Shown in pieces: positions 29,667 to 57,003 of a stretch of DNA of 64,000 nucleotides. The position numbers and the translations under genes were made by a program. This stretch comes from a virus (Duplodnaviria > Caudoviricetes). The DNA lies in IMG/VR virus record IMGVR_UViG_3300017700_000931, positions 1-64,000 of that record; one strand, written 5' to 3'. How positions within the stretch are numbered: position 1 is the first letter of the stretch; each line of letters opens with the position of its first letter. The notes under the pieces were generated by a model. It saw only the letters and a program-made list of their open reading frames with translations, did no database searches and was not told where the DNA came from.

Positions 29667-30131
29667 TTAACTTGAGTGTCGTTGGGATTTCTTCTTTTGA
29701 ATCAATTTATTCCATTCAACCATAAGTGGTTCTGGAATTTCAATATTTCTGAGATGAAATTCTTGAAGAATTTCATCTCTTGTGAATGAACATTCAACAA
29801 TTCCTTGACTCCATTGTTCAACCCACAAACCCCAACCCTTTTTTCCTACAATTACGGCTTTTAAAATATTTGAATGTTTGGTTACTGGAGTTTTTAATTT
29901 AAATCGACCATTATCATATTCTCTGAATCCAAATTTACCATCAGAACCATTAACATCAAAATTTACATCAACACCAACACCACAAAACGTTATTAATCCA
30001 GTGCGATAAACTTTCAAATAAAAATCAAACATTTTATTAAATTTATCTGAATATTTTTTCAAATGTCTATCATTTCTAGAACCGGATTTAGTTTTAGCTA
30101 ATTGAATTCGTTCTAATTTGTCTGGATTCAT
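29667..30131 (-). CDS. hypothetical protein
   Basis: 154-aa ORF. Confidence 0.7.
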   Translation of the reverse strand: MNPDKLERIQLAKTKSGSRNDRHLKKYSDKFNKMFDFYLKVYRTGLITFCGVGVDVNFDVNGSDGKFGFREYDNGRFKLKTPVTKHSNILKAVIVGKKGWGLWVEQWSQGIVECSFTRDEILQEFHLRNIEIPEPLMVEWNKLIQKKKSQRHSS

Positions 30132-30295
30132 AAATTACTTAATTCAGTATTTAAGTCTTGAATTTTTCTTTGATATTCACCAACATTTATTTCCTTCGTA
30201 TCTGAAGTTTTCTTTGTTAACGACAATCTTAATTCATTTTGAAGAAAATCAATTCTTTCTTGTAACTTCTTCTTCTTTTTTTCAATCTTTCCCAT
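30128..30295 (-). CDS. hypothetical protein
   Basis: start MGKIE outside the tRNA. Confidence 0.6.
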   Translation of the reverse strand: MGKIEKKKKKLQERIDFLQNELRLSLTKKTSDTKEINVGEYQRKIQDLNTELSNL

Positions 30296-30312
30296 AACAT
30301 ATTGATAATTTG

Positions 30313-30385
30313 TGGAACCACTCGGAGTCGAACCGAGTACTGCTGGGTGCAAGCCAACTATTATAGCCTGTTTAACTATAGCCCC
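30313..30385 (-). tRNA. tRNA-Ala(UGC)
   Basis: GUUGG CU-UGC-AC CCAGC; G3-U70. Confidence 0.9.
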
Positions 30386-30442
30386 TTAATATCTATGAAC
30401 CCTACATTGACTAGATGCAGGTTTGGTTGTCAACCGTTCATT

Positions 30443-30519
30443 TGGTGGAGCAGAAGGGAATCGAACCCTCCACTCTCTCCTTGCAAGGGAGAAACGCCAG
30501 CCTTGGTACATGCTGCCCC
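30443..30519 (-). tRNA. tRNA-Ala(UGC), encoded CCA
   Basis: UCUCC CU-UGC-AA GGAGA; G3-U70. Confidence 0.9.
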
Positions 30520-30583
30520 ATTTCACTTTTTCTTTCTCAGCTAATAGCTTCTAGGAAATATAAAAGTGTAAAACCCTACATCG

Positions 30584-30653
30584 TTGAGCCAACGAGAATC
30601 AAACTCGTGTCCCCACCCGTCTAGGTGGTGTTCTCTCACTAAACTATAGCCCA
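30584..30653 (-). pseudogene. tRNA-Ala-like body, 6-nt loop
   Basis: G3-U70; CCACC UAGACG GGUGG. Confidence 0.6.
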
Positions 30654-30724
30654 AAATTTATCCAATTTTCTTTCATTTTCAGTGTGCGGGATTGGATGCC
30701 CATCTCTGCTAACTTTTAATTTCA

Positions 30725-30817
30725 GTAGTACGATGTTTGCTTTCATTCTCAACTTCAGCATAGTGAGAACTACAGTTCACCGTTGTGTCGTTGTGCTGAA
30801 ACTACGACATCTACTAC
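30725..30817 (-). ncRNA. structured RNA with complementary loops
   Basis: GUAGUA/UACUAC; loops UUCAGCA and UGCUGAA. Confidence 0.5.
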
Positions 30818-30819
30818 CT

Positions 30820-30895
30820 TGGCGGTCCCTACGGGAGTTGAACCCGCTCCATACTGCGTGACAGGCAGATATCTTAACCATTTGACCTAGAGACC
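30820..30895 (-). tRNA. tRNA-Asp(GUC), encoded CCA
   Basis: loop CU-GUC-AC; G73. Confidence 0.9.
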
Positions 30896-30939
30896 ATTAT
30901 TAGTCCCCCAGCGGTTACTGGGATTTTTAAAACTAAAAG

Positions 30940-31010
30940 CGGTCTATGAGAGAATCGAACTCTCGGCACCACCGTGACAGGGTGGGATGTTACCACTACA
31001 CCAATAGACC
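30940..31010 (-). tRNA. tRNA-Asp(GUC)
   Basis: CCACC CU-GUC-AC GGUGG; G73. Confidence 0.92.
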
Positions 31011-31017
31011 AAATTTT

Positions 31018-31087
31018 GAAATGCACTGGGAATCGAACCCAGACCCCCGGCTCAACGCCGGAGTTCTAACCATTAAACTATACATTT
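31018..31087 (-). pseudogene. tRNA body with 5-nt anticodon loop
   Basis: CCGGC GUUGA GCCGG; normal D and T arms. Confidence 0.65.
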
Positions 31088-31183
31088 TAACTACTTACCC
31101 ATGACTGCTATCATAGTATCAGTAGAATGGCTTTTAACTTACGTTCAGTTAGCAGACCTACTTGCTTATTATCACCATTTTTG

Positions 31184-31267
31184 CGGTCTAGGAGGGATTC
31201 GAACCCACGTACATCCTTTCGGATTCCAGATTGAAAGTCTGGTGGCCTAGACCGCTAGCCGACGGCA
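31184..31267 (-). tRNA. tRNA-Glu(UUC) variant with rearranged acceptor and long variable arm
   Basis: CCAGA CU-UUC-AA UCUGG; 3' CCUAGACCGC pairs with GCGGUCUAGG in D region. Confidence 0.65.
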
Positions 31268-31278
31268 ACATTTAAAAG

Positions 31279-31350
31279 TACTCGGTAAGGGAATCGAACC
31301 CTTATTTAATGGCTGAAAACCATTCGTCCTAACCATTAGACGAACCGAGC
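31279..31350 (-). tRNA. tRNA-Glu(UUC)
   Basis: AAUGG UU-UUC-AG CCAUU. Confidence 0.88.
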
Positions 31351-31361
31351 ATCATATCAAT

Positions 31362-31373
31362 ATGTCAATGAAC
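31362..31373 (-). promoter_or_regulatory. boxA-like site
   Basis: GUUCAUUGACAU. Confidence 0.55.
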
Positions 31374-31387
31374 AATTTATTCTTTTG

Positions 31388-31459
31388 TGTGACCTCCCAG
31401 ATTCGAACTGGGCTTTCTTGGGCTTCAACCAAACGAAGGACCCCTGCTTCCAAGGTCAC
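31388..31459 (-). tRNA. tRNA-Phe(GAA)
   Basis: UUUGG UU-GAA-GC CCAAG. Confidence 0.8.
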
Positions 31460-31467
31460 ATATTTTG

Positions 31468-31540
31468 TGAGGGCAATCAGTAGCGACCTGATATCTCTGG
31501 TTTTTCAGACCAGCGCATAGACCATCTTTGCTATACCCCC
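31468..31540 (-). tRNA. tRNA-Phe(GAA), atypical T loop
   Basis: CUGGU CU-GAA-AA ACCAG; T loop GUCGCUA. Confidence 0.8.
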
Positions 31541-31554
31541 GAAATGTCATAAAC

Positions 31555-31587
31555 AAAAAAAGCTCGACCAAATTTGGTCGAGCTTTT
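31555..31587 (-). terminator. attenuator terminator, operon 2
   Basis: AGCUCGACCA/UGGUCGAGCU plus U tract. Confidence 0.9.
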
Positions 31588-31615
31588 ATCAGTGTTTTGT
31601 TTAAATACTTAAACG

Positions 31616-31705
31616 TTAACTTATGACAATACTTGACCACCCTAGGCGACAATCCGCCTCGGCTGCTTCAAAAGCAAAATCAAATATGTTGTTAACTGTT
31701 TTCAT
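31616..31705 (-). CDS. attenuator leader peptide 2 (F/D/A/E sensor)
   Basis: MKTVNNIFDFAFEAAEADCRLGWSSIVIS. Confidence 0.85.
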   Translation of the reverse strand: MKTVNNIFDFAFEAAEADCRLGWSSIVIS

Positions 31706-31750
31706 TGTATTATAAATATATTGTTTTTTATCAAAATCTTAATTACACTG

Positions 31751-31780
31751 CAAATATACGAAAGAATTTTTAATTAGCAA
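31751..31780 (-). promoter_or_regulatory. Bacteroidota-type promoter, operon 2
   Basis: TTGC ... TATATTTG. Confidence 0.8.
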
Positions 31781-31811
31781 GCTTTTTTCGAAATATTTTT
31801 TATTTTTTTTC

Positions 31812-32042
31812 TTAAGCGGTGTATTCTTTCATCAAAGTGTTGAATTCAGTATACAAATCTCTTGAGATATTTTTTCTCTTATAGTTGTTTTTGATTCTTG
31901 CTTTAACGTCAGAAACGTAATTTCTTCCGAAATCAAAAGTTCTTGATGCTTCTGATAATGAAATACCTCTGCTAATTGCTCTCTTTAAGATTCTAATACC
32001 ATTCTTAACGCTGGTTTCTGTTTTTGTACTTGTGTTTCTCAT
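31812..32042 (-). CDS. small HTH-like DNA-binding protein
   Basis: ISLSEASRTFDFGRNYVSDVK. Confidence 0.65.
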   Translation of the reverse strand: MRNTSTKTETSVKNGIRILKRAISRGISLSEASRTFDFGRNYVSDVKARIKNNYKRKNISRDLYTEFNTLMKEYTA

Positions 32043-32129
32043 GTTACTTTAGTTTTATTTAGATTATACCGCAAAATTATCAAGTAATTTCCAATACCAC
32101 AAGGGTTTTAACTAAAATAATTAATTTTG

Positions 32130-32218
32130 TAGGGGTGGTGGGACTCGAACCCACAGGTGTATCTTACGTTTGCCGTGAATTTTAAGCCCACCGCCTTTGC
32201 CAATTTGACCACACCCCC
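32130..32218 (-). tRNA. tRNA-Leu(UAA)
   Basis: GUGGG CU-UAA-AA UUCAC; long variable arm. Confidence 0.88.
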
Positions 32219-32227
32219 ATTTAATAG

Positions 32228-32298
32228 TAGCCCCAGATGGAATCGAACCATCGCTTTCTCCACGTCAAGGAGATATACTCCCATTATATTATGGGGCC
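32228..32298 (-). tRNA. tRNA-Val(GAC)
   Basis: UCUCC UU-GAC-GU GGAGA. Confidence 0.88.
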
Positions 32299-32303
32299 AT
32301 TTG

Positions 32304-32389
32304 TAGCGGGAGGTGGATTCGAACCACCGCAAGCCTTCTTAGGGTCTCTAGGTTATGAGCCTAGCGAGTTACCACTTCTCCATCCCGCA
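32304..32389 (-). tRNA. tRNA(CAU), initiator-like, long variable arm
   Basis: 1:72 mismatch; CUAGG CU-CAU-AA CCUAG; 19-nt variable region. Confidence 0.7.
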
Positions 32390-32394
32390 ATTTG

Positions 32395-32478
32395 TACCGA
32401 AGGTGGGATTCGAACCCACACGCCCTTTCGGACACTGGTTTCTAAAACCAGCACGTCTAACCGTTCCATCACTTCGGC
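32395..32478 (-). tRNA. tRNA-Leu(UAG)
   Basis: CUGGU UU-UAG-AA ACCAG. Confidence 0.9.
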
Positions 32479-32484
32479 ATATTG

Positions 32485-32572
32485 TACCCCTACTCAGACT
32501 CGAACTGAGAACGTTTCTTATGTTTTCCACGGCTTCTTAGACCGTAAGCTTTACCAGTTTGCTCATAAGGGC
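32485..32572 (-). tRNA. tRNA-Leu(AAG)
   Basis: ACGGU CU-AAG-AA GCCGU; long variable arm. Confidence 0.85.
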
Positions 32573-32628
32573 ATGTTCGGGCTACTATTCATTCGTCAAT
32601 ACCGCCCGACCGTATTGATTCCAAATTG

Positions 32629-32714
32629 TTGCAAAGGTAGGACTCGAACCTACAATTGGGTTTGCGACCCTCTCCCTCTCCGGGAGATGCGTATACCGAT
32701 TCCGCCACATTGCA
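32629..32714 (-). tRNA. tRNA-Leu(GAG)
   Basis: UCUCC CG-GAG-AG GGAGA (G33). Confidence 0.8.
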
Positions 32715-32741
32715 AGGATACTTGTACTTCGTATCCCTTTG

Positions 32742-32827
32742 TAGCCGAGGCGGGACTCGAACCCGCACGGGCATTTCTGCCCACCGGATTTTAAGTCCGG
32801 CGTGTCTACCAATTCCACCACTCGGCC
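32742..32827 (-). tRNA. tRNA-Leu(UAA)
   Basis: CCGGA CU-UAA-AA UCCGG. Confidence 0.92.
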
Positions 32828-32835
32828 ATCAGTTG

Positions 32836-32916
32836 TAGGGGCGGTGGGATTCGAACCCACATGCTCTAGGCGGTAGCTTTTGAAACTACTGCGTCTGCCA
32901 ATTCCGCCACGCCCCC
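32836..32916 (-). tRNA. tRNA-Leu(CAA)
   Basis: GUAGU UU-CAA-AA GCUAC. Confidence 0.9.
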
Positions 32917-32923
32917 ATTTATG

Positions 32924-32995
32924 TACCCTCGACTGGAATCGAACCAGTGCTTTCTGCATGTAAAACAAACGTGACTACCATTACACCACGAAGGC
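32924..32995 (-). tRNA. tRNA-Val(UAC)
   Basis: UUUGU UU-UAC-AU GCAGA. Confidence 0.85.
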
Positions 32996-32997
32996 AA

Positions 32998-33204
32998 TTA
33001 TATTCTATCAAAGTATTTAATCCAAACATCTAAATCCTCAAGTTCTATTTTAGTCAATTTACCAACACTACCTCTAATCGTATGTGATATTTTCAAATCA
33101 CCATTTTCAATCGTAATGAATGTAAATCCCCTAGTCCACCCTTTTGCATCAGTGACGAAGTTTCTCATTTTAAACATCAACTCCAATTCATTAGTGCGTT
33201 CCAT
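32998..33204 (-). CDS. hypothetical protein
   Basis: start MERTNEL between two tRNA-Val. Confidence 0.6.
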   Translation of the reverse strand: MERTNELELMFKMRNFVTDAKGWTRGFTFITIENGDLKISHTIRGSVGKLTKIELEDLDVWIKYFDRI

Positions 33205-33223
33205 AACCGGATTAATTACTATG

Positions 33224-33295
33224 TTGGAGCAGAGGGATTCGAACCCCCGACCTAGTGCATGTAACACACCAACTCTACCGCTGAGCTATACTCCA
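33224..33295 (-). tRNA. tRNA-Val(UAC)
   Basis: GGUGU GU-UAC-AU GCACU. Confidence 0.85.
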
Positions 33296-33330
33296 ATTTG
33301 ATAGGAATTACAACCTATCGTATTATTTTG

Positions 33331-33416
33331 AGCATGTGATAGGATTCGAACCTATGATGAGGGTTGCCCCATACGGTTTTGCAGACCGTTGCCTTCGACC
33401 ACTCGACCACACATGC
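33331..33416 (-). tRNA. tRNA-Cys(GCA), long variable arm
   Basis: ACGGU CU-GCA-AA ACCGU; U73; 17-nt variable region. Confidence 0.85.
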
Positions 33417-33430
33417 ATTTTATTTTGGTC

Positions 33431-33464
33431 AAAAAAAAAGCTCGAACTTTTTGAGTTCGAGCTT
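33431..33464 (-). terminator. attenuator terminator, operon 3
   Basis: AGCUCGAACU/AGUUCGAGCU plus U tract. Confidence 0.9.
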
Positions 33465-33488
33465 GAATATCTTTGGTATTAATCTTTA

Positions 33489-33581
33489 TTAACTTCCAAT
33501 CACATAGACATAGCTCGAACACTCTAACACCAATAGGCATAAGACTGAGTTAAGGAGCACTATGTTTACAAAATTGTTCAT
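33489..33581 (-). CDS. attenuator leader peptide 3 (V/L/C sensor)
   Basis: MNNFVNIVLLNSVLCLLVLECSSYVYVIGS. Confidence 0.85.
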   Translation of the reverse strand: MNNFVNIVLLNSVLCLLVLECSSYVYVIGS

Positions 33582-33615
33582 TGAAGATTTCTACGTTTTA
33601 TTATTAAATATATCA

Positions 33616-33645
33616 CAAAGATACTAATGTTATTTGAATTAGCAA
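33616..33645 (-). promoter_or_regulatory. Bacteroidota-type promoter, operon 3
   Basis: TTGC ... TATCTTTG. Confidence 0.8.
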
Positions 33646-33704
33646 TGATTTTTATAAATTATTTTTAAAATATTTTTTAATCGATTGATTTTGTGATATT
33701 TAAC

Positions 33705-33929
33705 TCATGATAAATTAACTGATAATTCTCCATTATTAAACCAACTTTCGGTATAAGTGATACTATAGTCGGTTAATGTTTTACCTACAATTCTTTTCAT
33801 TTCATCACTATTACCTGTGATAATGATTACCGATTTGGAGCCACCCATCAGGTGGTATCCAATGAATTTATCTACCTCTCTGGATACATCCGCATGTTTT
33901 ATACCATGTAAATCTAAACTATTTTTCAT
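33705..33929 (-). CDS. Smr-like domain protein
   Basis: LDLHG...VDKFI...IIITG. Confidence 0.7.
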   Translation of the reverse strand: MKNSLDLHGIKHADVSREVDKFIGYHLMGGSKSVIIITGNSDEMKRIVGKTLTDYSITYTESWFNNGELSVNLS

Positions 33930-34386
33930 TATTAATTTTTTTCAATATGTTAAGTACATTTATTACTGTTGCTTCATTATTGGTTTTGGAACCTAGCCAT
34001 AATAAATATCTTTTCATCTCATCTAATTCTAATAATGTAAGTTTACTAAGCCACTTACCTTTAAATTTACCAGTTATAAATGTGTAATCATCAGATACTT
34101 TCCTAATGACACCACATCTAGGATTTTTATTTGTATTTCTTATTGAGACCGGATGGATTAATTTACTACCTTCCAATTTTTTACACTCAATAACATACCT
34201 GTTACCCTTTCTTAGGGTTATTGTATCAAAAATTTTAGCACGGTTGGAGTGATATTCACCTGACATGTCTTCTCCGGCATCATTTCTCACACCGGACCAC
34301 ATCATTTGTAAATCACCAACAAAGTTATCTGATTTTTTTGGTTCTAAGTCTTTTAAACCATTAAATGTTGCATACAATCTAATCAT
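33919..34386 (-). CDS. hypothetical protein
   Basis: 155-aa ORF. Confidence 0.7.
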   Translation of the reverse strand: MIRLYATFNGLKDLEPKKSDNFVGDLQMMWSGVRNDAGEDMSGEYHSNRAKIFDTITLRKGNRYVIECKKLEGSKLIHPVSIRNTNKNPRCGVIRKVSDDYTFITGKFKGKWLSKLTLLELDEMKRYLLWLGSKTNNEATVINVLNILKKINNEK

Positions 34387-56290: not shown

Positions 56291-56292
56291 TG

Positions 56293-56380
56293 CTACTGGG
56301 GTGGGATTCGAACCCACGGTGGAGAATTAACTCGTCAGATTAACAGTCTGATGCATTCGGCCAACTATGCGAACCCAGTA
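56293..56380 (-). tRNA. tRNA-Asn(GUU), long variable arm
   Basis: UCAGA CU-GUU-AA UCUGA; G73. Confidence 0.85.
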
Positions 56381-56789: not shown

Positions 56790-56919
56790 ATTTGTAGTTT
56801 TATGCCCTAGAGAAACTACAACTCCGTCTCATTTCCGGCTAACGTCTGGTACCATCTTTTAGCCTTATAATCGATACCACATAGTGTGCATGCAAGCAGA
56901 GGCATATGGTGACTTCGAG

Positions 56920-57003
56920 TTGTGTCGGTGGGAGTTGAACCCACTTTGAGGATATACCTCCCAGCTTATCAGGCTGGTGCCTAAACCGTCCGACCCCGAC
57001 ACA
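56920..57003 (-). tRNA. tRNA-Ile(GAU), long variable arm
   Basis: CCAGC CU-GAU-AA GCUGG; GAGG UAUAU CCUC. Confidence 0.78.

Follow-up and report, generated by a model that had tools for sequence, protein, structure and literature searches.

The locus described here raises two questions. One is whether a short open reading frame (uORF) and a hairpin ahead of a Cys/Val/Leu tRNA operon in a viral genome form a transcription attenuator; the other is whether such a device would read the tRNA pool isoacceptor by isoacceptor, as an earlier note had proposed. The genome (W) is a single 362,532-bp contig recorded as a virus, with 32.7% G+C and 57 tRNA genes, and the window analyzed here is its first 64 kb. 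The elements of the locus, which we call unit D, follow one another on the minus strand in the order promoter, uORF, terminator hairpin and tRNA genes:

33645-33616, minus strand: promoter, made up of TTGCTAATT (33645-33637) and a TAnnTTTG-type -7 box, TATCTTTG (33623-33616)
33581-33489, minus strand: leader uORF, ATG to TAA, 30 codons plus TAA
33576-33555, minus strand: region 1, the 5' strand of the anti-antiterminator (1:2) helix in the MFE and consensus folds
33560-33525, minus strand: regulatory run, uORF codons 8-19, VLLNSVLCLLVL, encoding V L L N S V L C L L V L
33544-33523, minus strand: H1, a conserved inner hairpin in the folds, inside codons 13-20 (33545-33522)
33520-33497, minus strand: region 2, the first 9 nt of which, GTTCGAGCT (33520-33512), are the antiterminator strand
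33464-33454, minus strand: region 3, the 5' arm of the terminator, with region 2 as its alternative partner in the folds
33448-33431, minus strand: region 4, with the terminator 3' arm at 33448-33438, the final two bases of which open the T9 run at 33439-33431
33416-32129, minus strand: unit D operon of 11 tRNA genes, Cys GCA first and Leu UAA last

For comparison we used G001 (353 kb, complete), G002 (71 kb) and L034 (a 1.4-kb metagenome piece), which were found via a neighboring 155-residue protein that is about 60% identical between W and these three, and G003 (152 kb), G004, G005 and G006, which were added by a promoter-pattern scan. It was a looser promoter pattern that succeeded, whereas an exact-pattern scan with the W -7 region gave no matches; neither did an exact-pattern scan of metagenomes with the leader core, and searches of the phage collection with megablast and blastn returned nothing useful. 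All four tRNA operons of the window are present in G001, and both G001 and G002 carry the Cys/Val/Leu and the Phe/Glu/Asp/Ala operons in the order seen in W. The chance figures given below are hand calculations from the residue and codon frequencies of 252 long ORFs of the W genome.

The promoter cassette, which we take to be a Bacteroidota-type sigma-A promoter, stands before each of the four tRNA operons in the window, recurs at a fifth site at 70763, and is kept in G001-G006. Judging from the promoter type alone, the host RNA polymerase would transcribe the four units. The gene directly upstream of the unit D promoter (33929-33705, minus strand) codes for a 74-residue Smr-domain protein (Pfam E 1e-5), and its position is conserved in G001 and L034.

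The uORF starts 35 nt past the -7 box and precedes the regulated tRNA genes, and it has homologues in G001, G002, L034 and G003. The reading frame and the codons listed for it in the earlier note are present as described, from ATG to TAA. Ahead of the antiterminator strand these are, with codon numbers in brackets, GUA (5), GUG (8), CUC (9), CUU (10), GUC (13), UUA (14), UGC (15), CUA (16), UUG (17), GUG (18) and UUA (19). Codons 8-19 do specify Val, Leu or Cys in 10 of 12 cases, and the chance of finding at least 10 of 12 residues in the set {L,V,C} is about 2.6e-7 per 12-codon window. The operon downstream specifies tRNAs in the order Cys GCA, Val UAC, a 59-codon ORF, Val UAC, Leu CAA, UAA, GAG, AAG and UAG, and, after Leu UAG, a type-II CAU tRNA, Val GAC and Leu UAA. 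The anticodons named in the earlier note (Cys GCA; Val UAC twice and GAC; Leu CAA, UAA twice, GAG, AAG and UAG) are all there, and what it left out is the CAU tRNA with a long variable arm (32389-32303). The small ORF of 59 codons between the two Val tRNAs lies at 32998-33177 on the minus strand.

The terminator between the uORF and the tRNA genes (33464-33438) is an 11-bp stem followed by the T9 run, with a folding energy of -15.5 kcal/mol and a z score of -4.8. Within the uORF, GTTCGAGCT (33520-33512) is the perfect complement, over 9 bp, of AGCTCGAAC (33463-33455) in the 5' arm of this hairpin, a pairing reported earlier that our reading of the strand bears out, and it is likewise an exact copy of the 3' arm. 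Three copies of the 9-mer occur in the window, all of them at the unit D locus, against 0.10 expected. When the leader is folded without the terminator 3' arm, the MFE structure is the 2:3 antiterminator (-21.4 kcal/mol, z -4.1). The MFE structure of the full leader is instead a 1:2 helix, joining 33576-33555 to 33520-33497 and enclosing H1, together with the terminator; the full-leader MFE folds with this helix reach -45.2 and -40.6 kcal/mol (z -4.9 and -4.6). In these predicted folds the unit D leader has the classical four-region layout. The 1:2 helix is predicted in W, in the consensus of W, G001 and G002, and in G003, with zero compensatory changes among the three close sequences. The H1 stem is common to W, G001 and G002, apart from a U-G pair that has become U-A.

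Unit D is one of four units in W built on the same plan, in which the common promoter is followed by about 30 codons of leader, a terminator with an antiterminator as its alternative, and a tRNA operon. The other three are:

16232-15998, minus strand: unit A, leader run TYQPKQYTQGGKP, tRNAs for Pro, Gln, Tyr, Thr, Gly and Lys; homologue in G003
31780-31555, minus strand: unit C, leader run FDFAFEAAEAD, tRNAs for Phe, Glu, Asp and Ala; homologues in relatives
58552-58325, minus strand: unit E, 18 of the first 19 leader codons in the set {M,H,I,S,N,W,R}, tRNAs for Trp, Ser, His, Asn, Arg, Ile and Met; homologue in G003

The probability that leader and operon would agree in amino acids by chance is about 3e-7, 1e-7, 2.6e-7 and 6e-9 for units A, C, D and E, respectively. 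The four units have amino-acid sets that do not overlap and that jointly comprise all 20 amino acids. The fifth promoter copy, which lies outside the window, was rejected as an attenuator unit, there being no leader ORF; at that site (genome 70116-70763) a structured RNA of about 570 nt is followed by a tRNA with the anticodon CAU.

Some further genes of these operons deserve mention in their own right. A small ORF of about 59 codons (58307-58130, minus strand) follows the unit E terminator and is conserved in G001 (L023:14468-14640). Operon C contains two tRNA-like genes, at 30584-30653 and 31191-31263 on the minus strand, that score 45 and 35 bits in Rfam and receive no ARAGORN call, as well as a 70-nt tRNA called as Gln(UUG) (31018-31087, minus strand), for which leader C has no Gln codon. 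The matching place in G001 is taken by a tRNA with the ochre-suppressor-like anticodon UUA (L025:8241-8313), and that in G003 by two tRNAs with the amber-suppressor-like anticodon CUA (L073:6936-7084).

Conservation of the unit D leader is greater than that of its surroundings: W, G001 and G002 share about 83% nucleotide identity across it, compared with about 60% in the flanking protein, and it is also kept in L034. The three top pairs of the terminator are compensatory in the consensus of W, G001 and G002. The antiterminator helix has 96.7% of its cells paired, against at most 47% when it is slid, and includes one double change, from U-A in W to G-U in G001 and G002. Between W and G001 the leader has undergone 11 replacements and only 2 synonymous changes, and several of the replacements stay within the set (V to L, L to V, S to L); it is the composition and the RNA of the D leader that are conserved and not the peptide. 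The G003 leader carries this further, as it is only 20% identical and nonetheless keeps a 10/12 L/V/C run, ILVLCLLSSVVLL. It also retains the GAGCU core between different flanking pairs, pairs it with a different terminator arm, and forms the same 1:2, 2:3 and 3:4 alternative helices. In the four-sequence alignment the 5' terminator arm of G003 falls one column off register, and its pairing was taken from the sequence and the folds in place of the alignment, on which no pairs were counted.

The remaining units and relatives show the same pattern. The terminator arms of unit C differ in three genomes (GCTCGACC, GCCTTCC and GCCGACCA), and uORF codons 22-24 change together with them. G004 has a 12-amino-acid operon, the leader of which runs through 23 consecutive in-set codons and contains a 9-bp perfect antiterminator. 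G003-G006 supply further examples of units with the promoter, a mini-ORF in the amino acids of its operon, and the terminator and antiterminator, and in all units and all relatives the antiterminator strand again lies inside the ORF. The A- and E-type leaders of G001 (L023:14279-14440 and L026:5706-5880) lack the ATG and about the first ten codons, the promoter being joined straight to the middle of the leader with an identical junction in both; either the leader is dispensable and really lost there, or the assembly is faulty. The A and E leaders of G003 are intact.

The anatomy of the locus, the three sibling units, and the conservation with covariation in relatives together lend good support to the attenuator reading, and we consider it likely that unit D is a ribosome-mediated (leader-peptide) transcription attenuator that gates the phage Cys/Val/Leu tRNA operon. 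The anatomy, the alternative folds and the conservation with covariation are shown by the sequences and their predicted folds; for the direction and the trigger of regulation we infer the following course of events. Transcription would start at the host-type promoter and the 30-codon leader would be translated at once. If the Val, Leu and Cys codons (roughly codons 5-17) are read without delay, the ribosome would run on over region 2, and with region 2 covered the terminator (3:4) would form and transcription would stop at about 33431, ahead of the tRNA genes. Should the corresponding aminoacyl-tRNAs be scarce, the ribosome would stall on region 1 or H1 and so free region 2, and GTTCGAGCT could then pair with the 5' arm of the terminator and allow the RNA polymerase to continue into the tRNA genes. 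Were the leader left entirely untranslated, 1:2 pairing would again permit the terminator to form. As more Cys, Val and Leu tRNA would relieve the stall, unit D would act as a negative-feedback controller of decoding capacity. The sensing would be by tRNA family, with a codon choice biased toward rare and wobble-read codons that is partly dictated by RNA pairing. In the footprint geometry assumed here, a ribosome with its A site at about codons 5-17 would cover region 1 or H1 and keep region 2 open. A ribosome at the stop codon has its trailing edge at about 33506, 6 nt short of the antiterminator strand, and the exclusion of the 2:3 helix in the "fast" state therefore relies on steric and kinetic arguments.

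Taken by itself, unit D is the weakest of the four units, with a Leu/Val/Cys-rich stretch of 18 residues that resembles a small membrane peptide. The uORF might accordingly encode a functional small hydrophobic peptide (membrane- or toxin-like) or go untranslated, in which case the hairpin would be a constitutive terminator or insulator and the tRNAs would be expressed from elsewhere; VLLNSVLCLLVL is in fact hydrophobic enough for a membrane segment. This doubt is removed by the sibling leaders A, C and E, which are not hydrophobic and each of which matches its own operon. An account centered on the peptide also sits poorly with the great excess of replacements over synonymous changes, under which composition and RNA pairing are kept, and with the ORF-internal antiterminator strand in every unit and relative. 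Nor is there any other promoter-like cassette between the unit D terminator and the tRNA genes from which they might be expressed. We regard this explanation as very improbable. The same holds for a switch that works independently of translation, be it a T-box-like RNA with uncharged tRNA as its ligand or an antitermination protein of the phage or the host. T-boxes and protein-dependent attenuators, too, are characterized by terminator and antiterminator folds that exclude each other; however, the leader is only about 150 nt long and has no specifier-loop architecture, and an ATG-to-stop ORF with a composition that tracks the operon is conserved in diverged relatives, all of which makes such a switch a far-fetched candidate. 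Rfam yielded no T-box or other riboswitch match, and for T-boxes this held across 30000-34000 even at E-values up to 1. Membership in the Rfam Thr_leader and Phe_leader families was rejected, with scores of 23-28 bits against a threshold of 55, and the resemblance to them is architectural only; several Rfam sRNA matches, far below threshold, were likewise rejected.

If unit D is a leader-peptide attenuator, it may still be asked how finely it reads the tRNA pool. The earlier note had seen a near one-to-one match between uORF codons and operon anticodons for Leu, Val and Cys, and had taken it to mean sensing at the level of isoacceptors. The match is exact for Leu, six to six: the six Leu codons of the uORF (CUC, CUU, UUA, CUA, UUG and UUA) match the anticodons of the six tRNA-Leu genes by Watson-Crick pairing, and, as had been noted, CUG is missing from the uORF and tRNA-Leu(CAG) from the entire genome. 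With the Leu codon usage of W (UUA 0.511, UUG 0.186, CUU 0.163, CUA 0.099, CUG 0.023 and CUC 0.018), this exact multiset has a post hoc p of 0.0051 in W. The counts for Val and Cys do not match. Four Val codons precede the antiterminator (six in all) for three tRNAs, one of the codons used, GUG, has no Watson-Crick partner in the operon, and one Cys codon (or two) stands against a single tRNA. Yet a Watson-Crick codon can be found in unit D for nine of nine operon anticodons, provided that the start AUG is counted for the CAU tRNA; the probability of having one for every operon anticodon is about 3e-4 to 1e-3, again post hoc.

A leader designed as an isoacceptor-by-isoacceptor sensor, in which each tRNA gene has its own Watson-Crick codon and the numbers match, would detect the loss of any single isoacceptor separately. 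The complete coverage of anticodons and the exact Leu multiset of W speak in its favor, as does the avoidance of GUU in D-type leaders. Two weak hints of covariation point the same way: operon A of G003 has Thr(GGU) and its leader ACU twice, W having neither, and operon E of G003 shows only Ser(GCU), two of the three Ser codons of its leader run being AGU. The Leu match, however, is not conserved in the relatives, as the Leu codons of their leaders and their tRNA-Leu genes make plain:

G001: leader Leu codons UUA four times, CUU and CUA; tRNA-Leu UAG, UAA twice, AAG and CAA, plus an aberrant type-II gene
G002: leader Leu codons UUA four times, CUU and CUA; tRNA-Leu UAG, UAA, a second UAG-like one and GAG
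G003: leader Leu codons UUA three times, CUG twice and UUG; tRNA-Leu UAG, GAG, UAA and CAA
G004: leader Leu codons CUC and UUA; tRNA-Leu UAG only

G001 and G002 thus combine identical leader Leu codons with different tRNA-Leu sets, so that Leu(CAA) is without a UUG codon in the former and Leu(GAG) without a CUC codon in the latter. In G003, two CUG codons stand without a Leu(CAG) tRNA, and there is no CUY codon for its Leu(GAG). The design fails equally in the other three leaders of W, in which a Watson-Crick codon is found for 4 of 7 (A), 2 of 5 (C) and 6 of 12 (E) anticodons, and in which the G34 tRNAs for Tyr, Phe, Asp and Asn are represented by the U-ending wobble codon. Finally, the two diagnostic codons of unit D are explained by pairing within the leader RNA: in the 1:2 helix, codon 9, CUC (33557-33555), is the partner of the region 2 GAG (33516-33514), and in H1 the last base of UUG, a G that the relatives keep in GUG or UCG codons, pairs with the C of CUA. 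With the mismatched Val and Cys counts added, a designed sensor of single isoacceptors seems to us unlikely, and the exact codon-for-anticodon match has probably arisen by chance, with structural constraints contributing. Of the earlier proposal the attenuator itself is well supported, but isoacceptor-level sensing as a one-to-one design is not supported by comparison with the relatives and sibling leaders. The case counsels caution, in that a striking codon-for-anticodon match in one genome dissolves once the relatives are read.

Nevertheless, codon choice in the leaders is clearly non-random, with rare and NNG codons favored and GUU never used. GUU, which both Val species can read, makes up 55% of Val codons and none of the six Val codons of the uORF (p ~0.009), and none of the D-type leaders seen contains it. 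In the W leaders an NNG codon is present for each of the ten families that U34 tRNAs read (p ~2e-6, post hoc), and four genomes show no variation in rare codons such as GUC, UGC and CUA. Since stalling is by nature codon-specific and codon choice is non-random, a looser tuning at the level of codons is plausible; the codons chosen may reflect RNA pairing, selection in favor of slow or single-decoder codons, or both.

Several tRNAs of this genome are themselves unusual. The first gene of operon D (33416-33330, minus strand) combines the anticodon GCA with a long variable arm, an unusual trait in a tRNA-Cys. This long-arm GCA tRNA, 85-91 nt in length, is conserved in four phages (L002:11307-11391, L003:10840-10930 and L054:1024-1110 in the relatives), and each of the larger genomes has a normal 72-nt tRNA-Cys elsewhere (e.g., genome position 66817-66888). 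The type-II CAU tRNA that lies among the Leu tRNAs at 32389-32303 on the minus strand has a counterpart in a relative at L002:12553-12641. Codon 7 of the uORF is AUA in five of five D-type leaders, as would fit a probe of the type-II CAU tRNA, were the latter a reader of the lysidine Ile2 type; no CAU tRNA is called by ARAGORN in the D operon of G003. That operon also holds a Leu-like type-II tRNA gene (L054:1225-1960) apparently interrupted by about 740 bp with ORFs, which may be an intron or a mobile insertion. Elsewhere in the window, three tRNAs of 85-89 nt (14755-14842, 56292-56380 and 56919-57003, minus strand) have the anticodons Thr UGU, Asn GUU and Ile GAU, which are normally found on short-arm tRNAs.

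The mechanism proposed for unit D would belong, by analogy of its parts, to the trpL/hisL/leuL/ilvL class. Like the enterobacterial leaders ilvL of ilvGMEDA, ivbL of ilvBN and leuL, unit D has a short leader ORF just past the promoter, a run of Leu/Val-type control codons and, in the predicted folds, a four-region RNA (1:2, 2:3 and 3:4) with an intrinsic terminator; in leuL it is a rare Leu codon that gives sensitivity. It differs from them in being phage-encoded, in including Cys, in its TAnnTTTG-type promoter, in sharing out the 20 amino acids with three further units, and in controlling tRNAs rather than biosynthetic enzymes, such that it would correct the supply of tRNA and not that of amino acids. 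There is no sequence homology to these leaders, and the Rfam leader models remain below threshold. The nearest functional analogue is the pheST attenuator of E. coli with its pheM leader, in which a component of the translation apparatus is controlled by its cognate charged tRNA. That system concerns one aminoacyl-tRNA synthetase and one amino acid, whereas unit D would govern 11 tRNA genes for three or four amino acids. T-boxes, the known case of true isoacceptor-level sensing, share with the mechanism proposed for unit D a terminator/antiterminator switch thrown by tRNA status, which they read with codon-anticodon specificity. In contrast to that mechanism, they bind uncharged tRNA directly without a ribosome and control synthetase and amino-acid genes, and unit D has no T-box features.

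tRNA genes are usually seen as controlled at their promoters (growth rate, stringent response), and phage tRNA genes are usually discussed as compensation for codon usage or as spares against tRNA-cleaving defenses. A full-text literature search did not find leader-peptide control of tRNA genes described. One could go further and suppose that the four leaders amount to a complete surveillance of decoding capacity over all 20 amino acids, with codons selected to probe the tRNAs likeliest to fail. The probes would be rare codons and NNG wobble codons, with avoidance of codons such as GUU that two isoacceptors read; the failures might come from cleavage by host anticodon nucleases or from degradation during infection; and the phage would replace exactly the depleted class of tRNA on demand. 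We hold this extension to be doubtful, though if true, tRNA genes would be regulated by a new kind of logic, and the leaders would act as a counter-defense sensor. For the attenuator reading itself, a leader-peptide attenuator before tRNA genes would mean that the ribosome itself gauges decoding capacity and orders more tRNA. Units of this kind would be compact natural sensors of the tRNA supply for given amino acids, and such gating would make it possible to test when, and for what reason, giant phages express their tRNAs.
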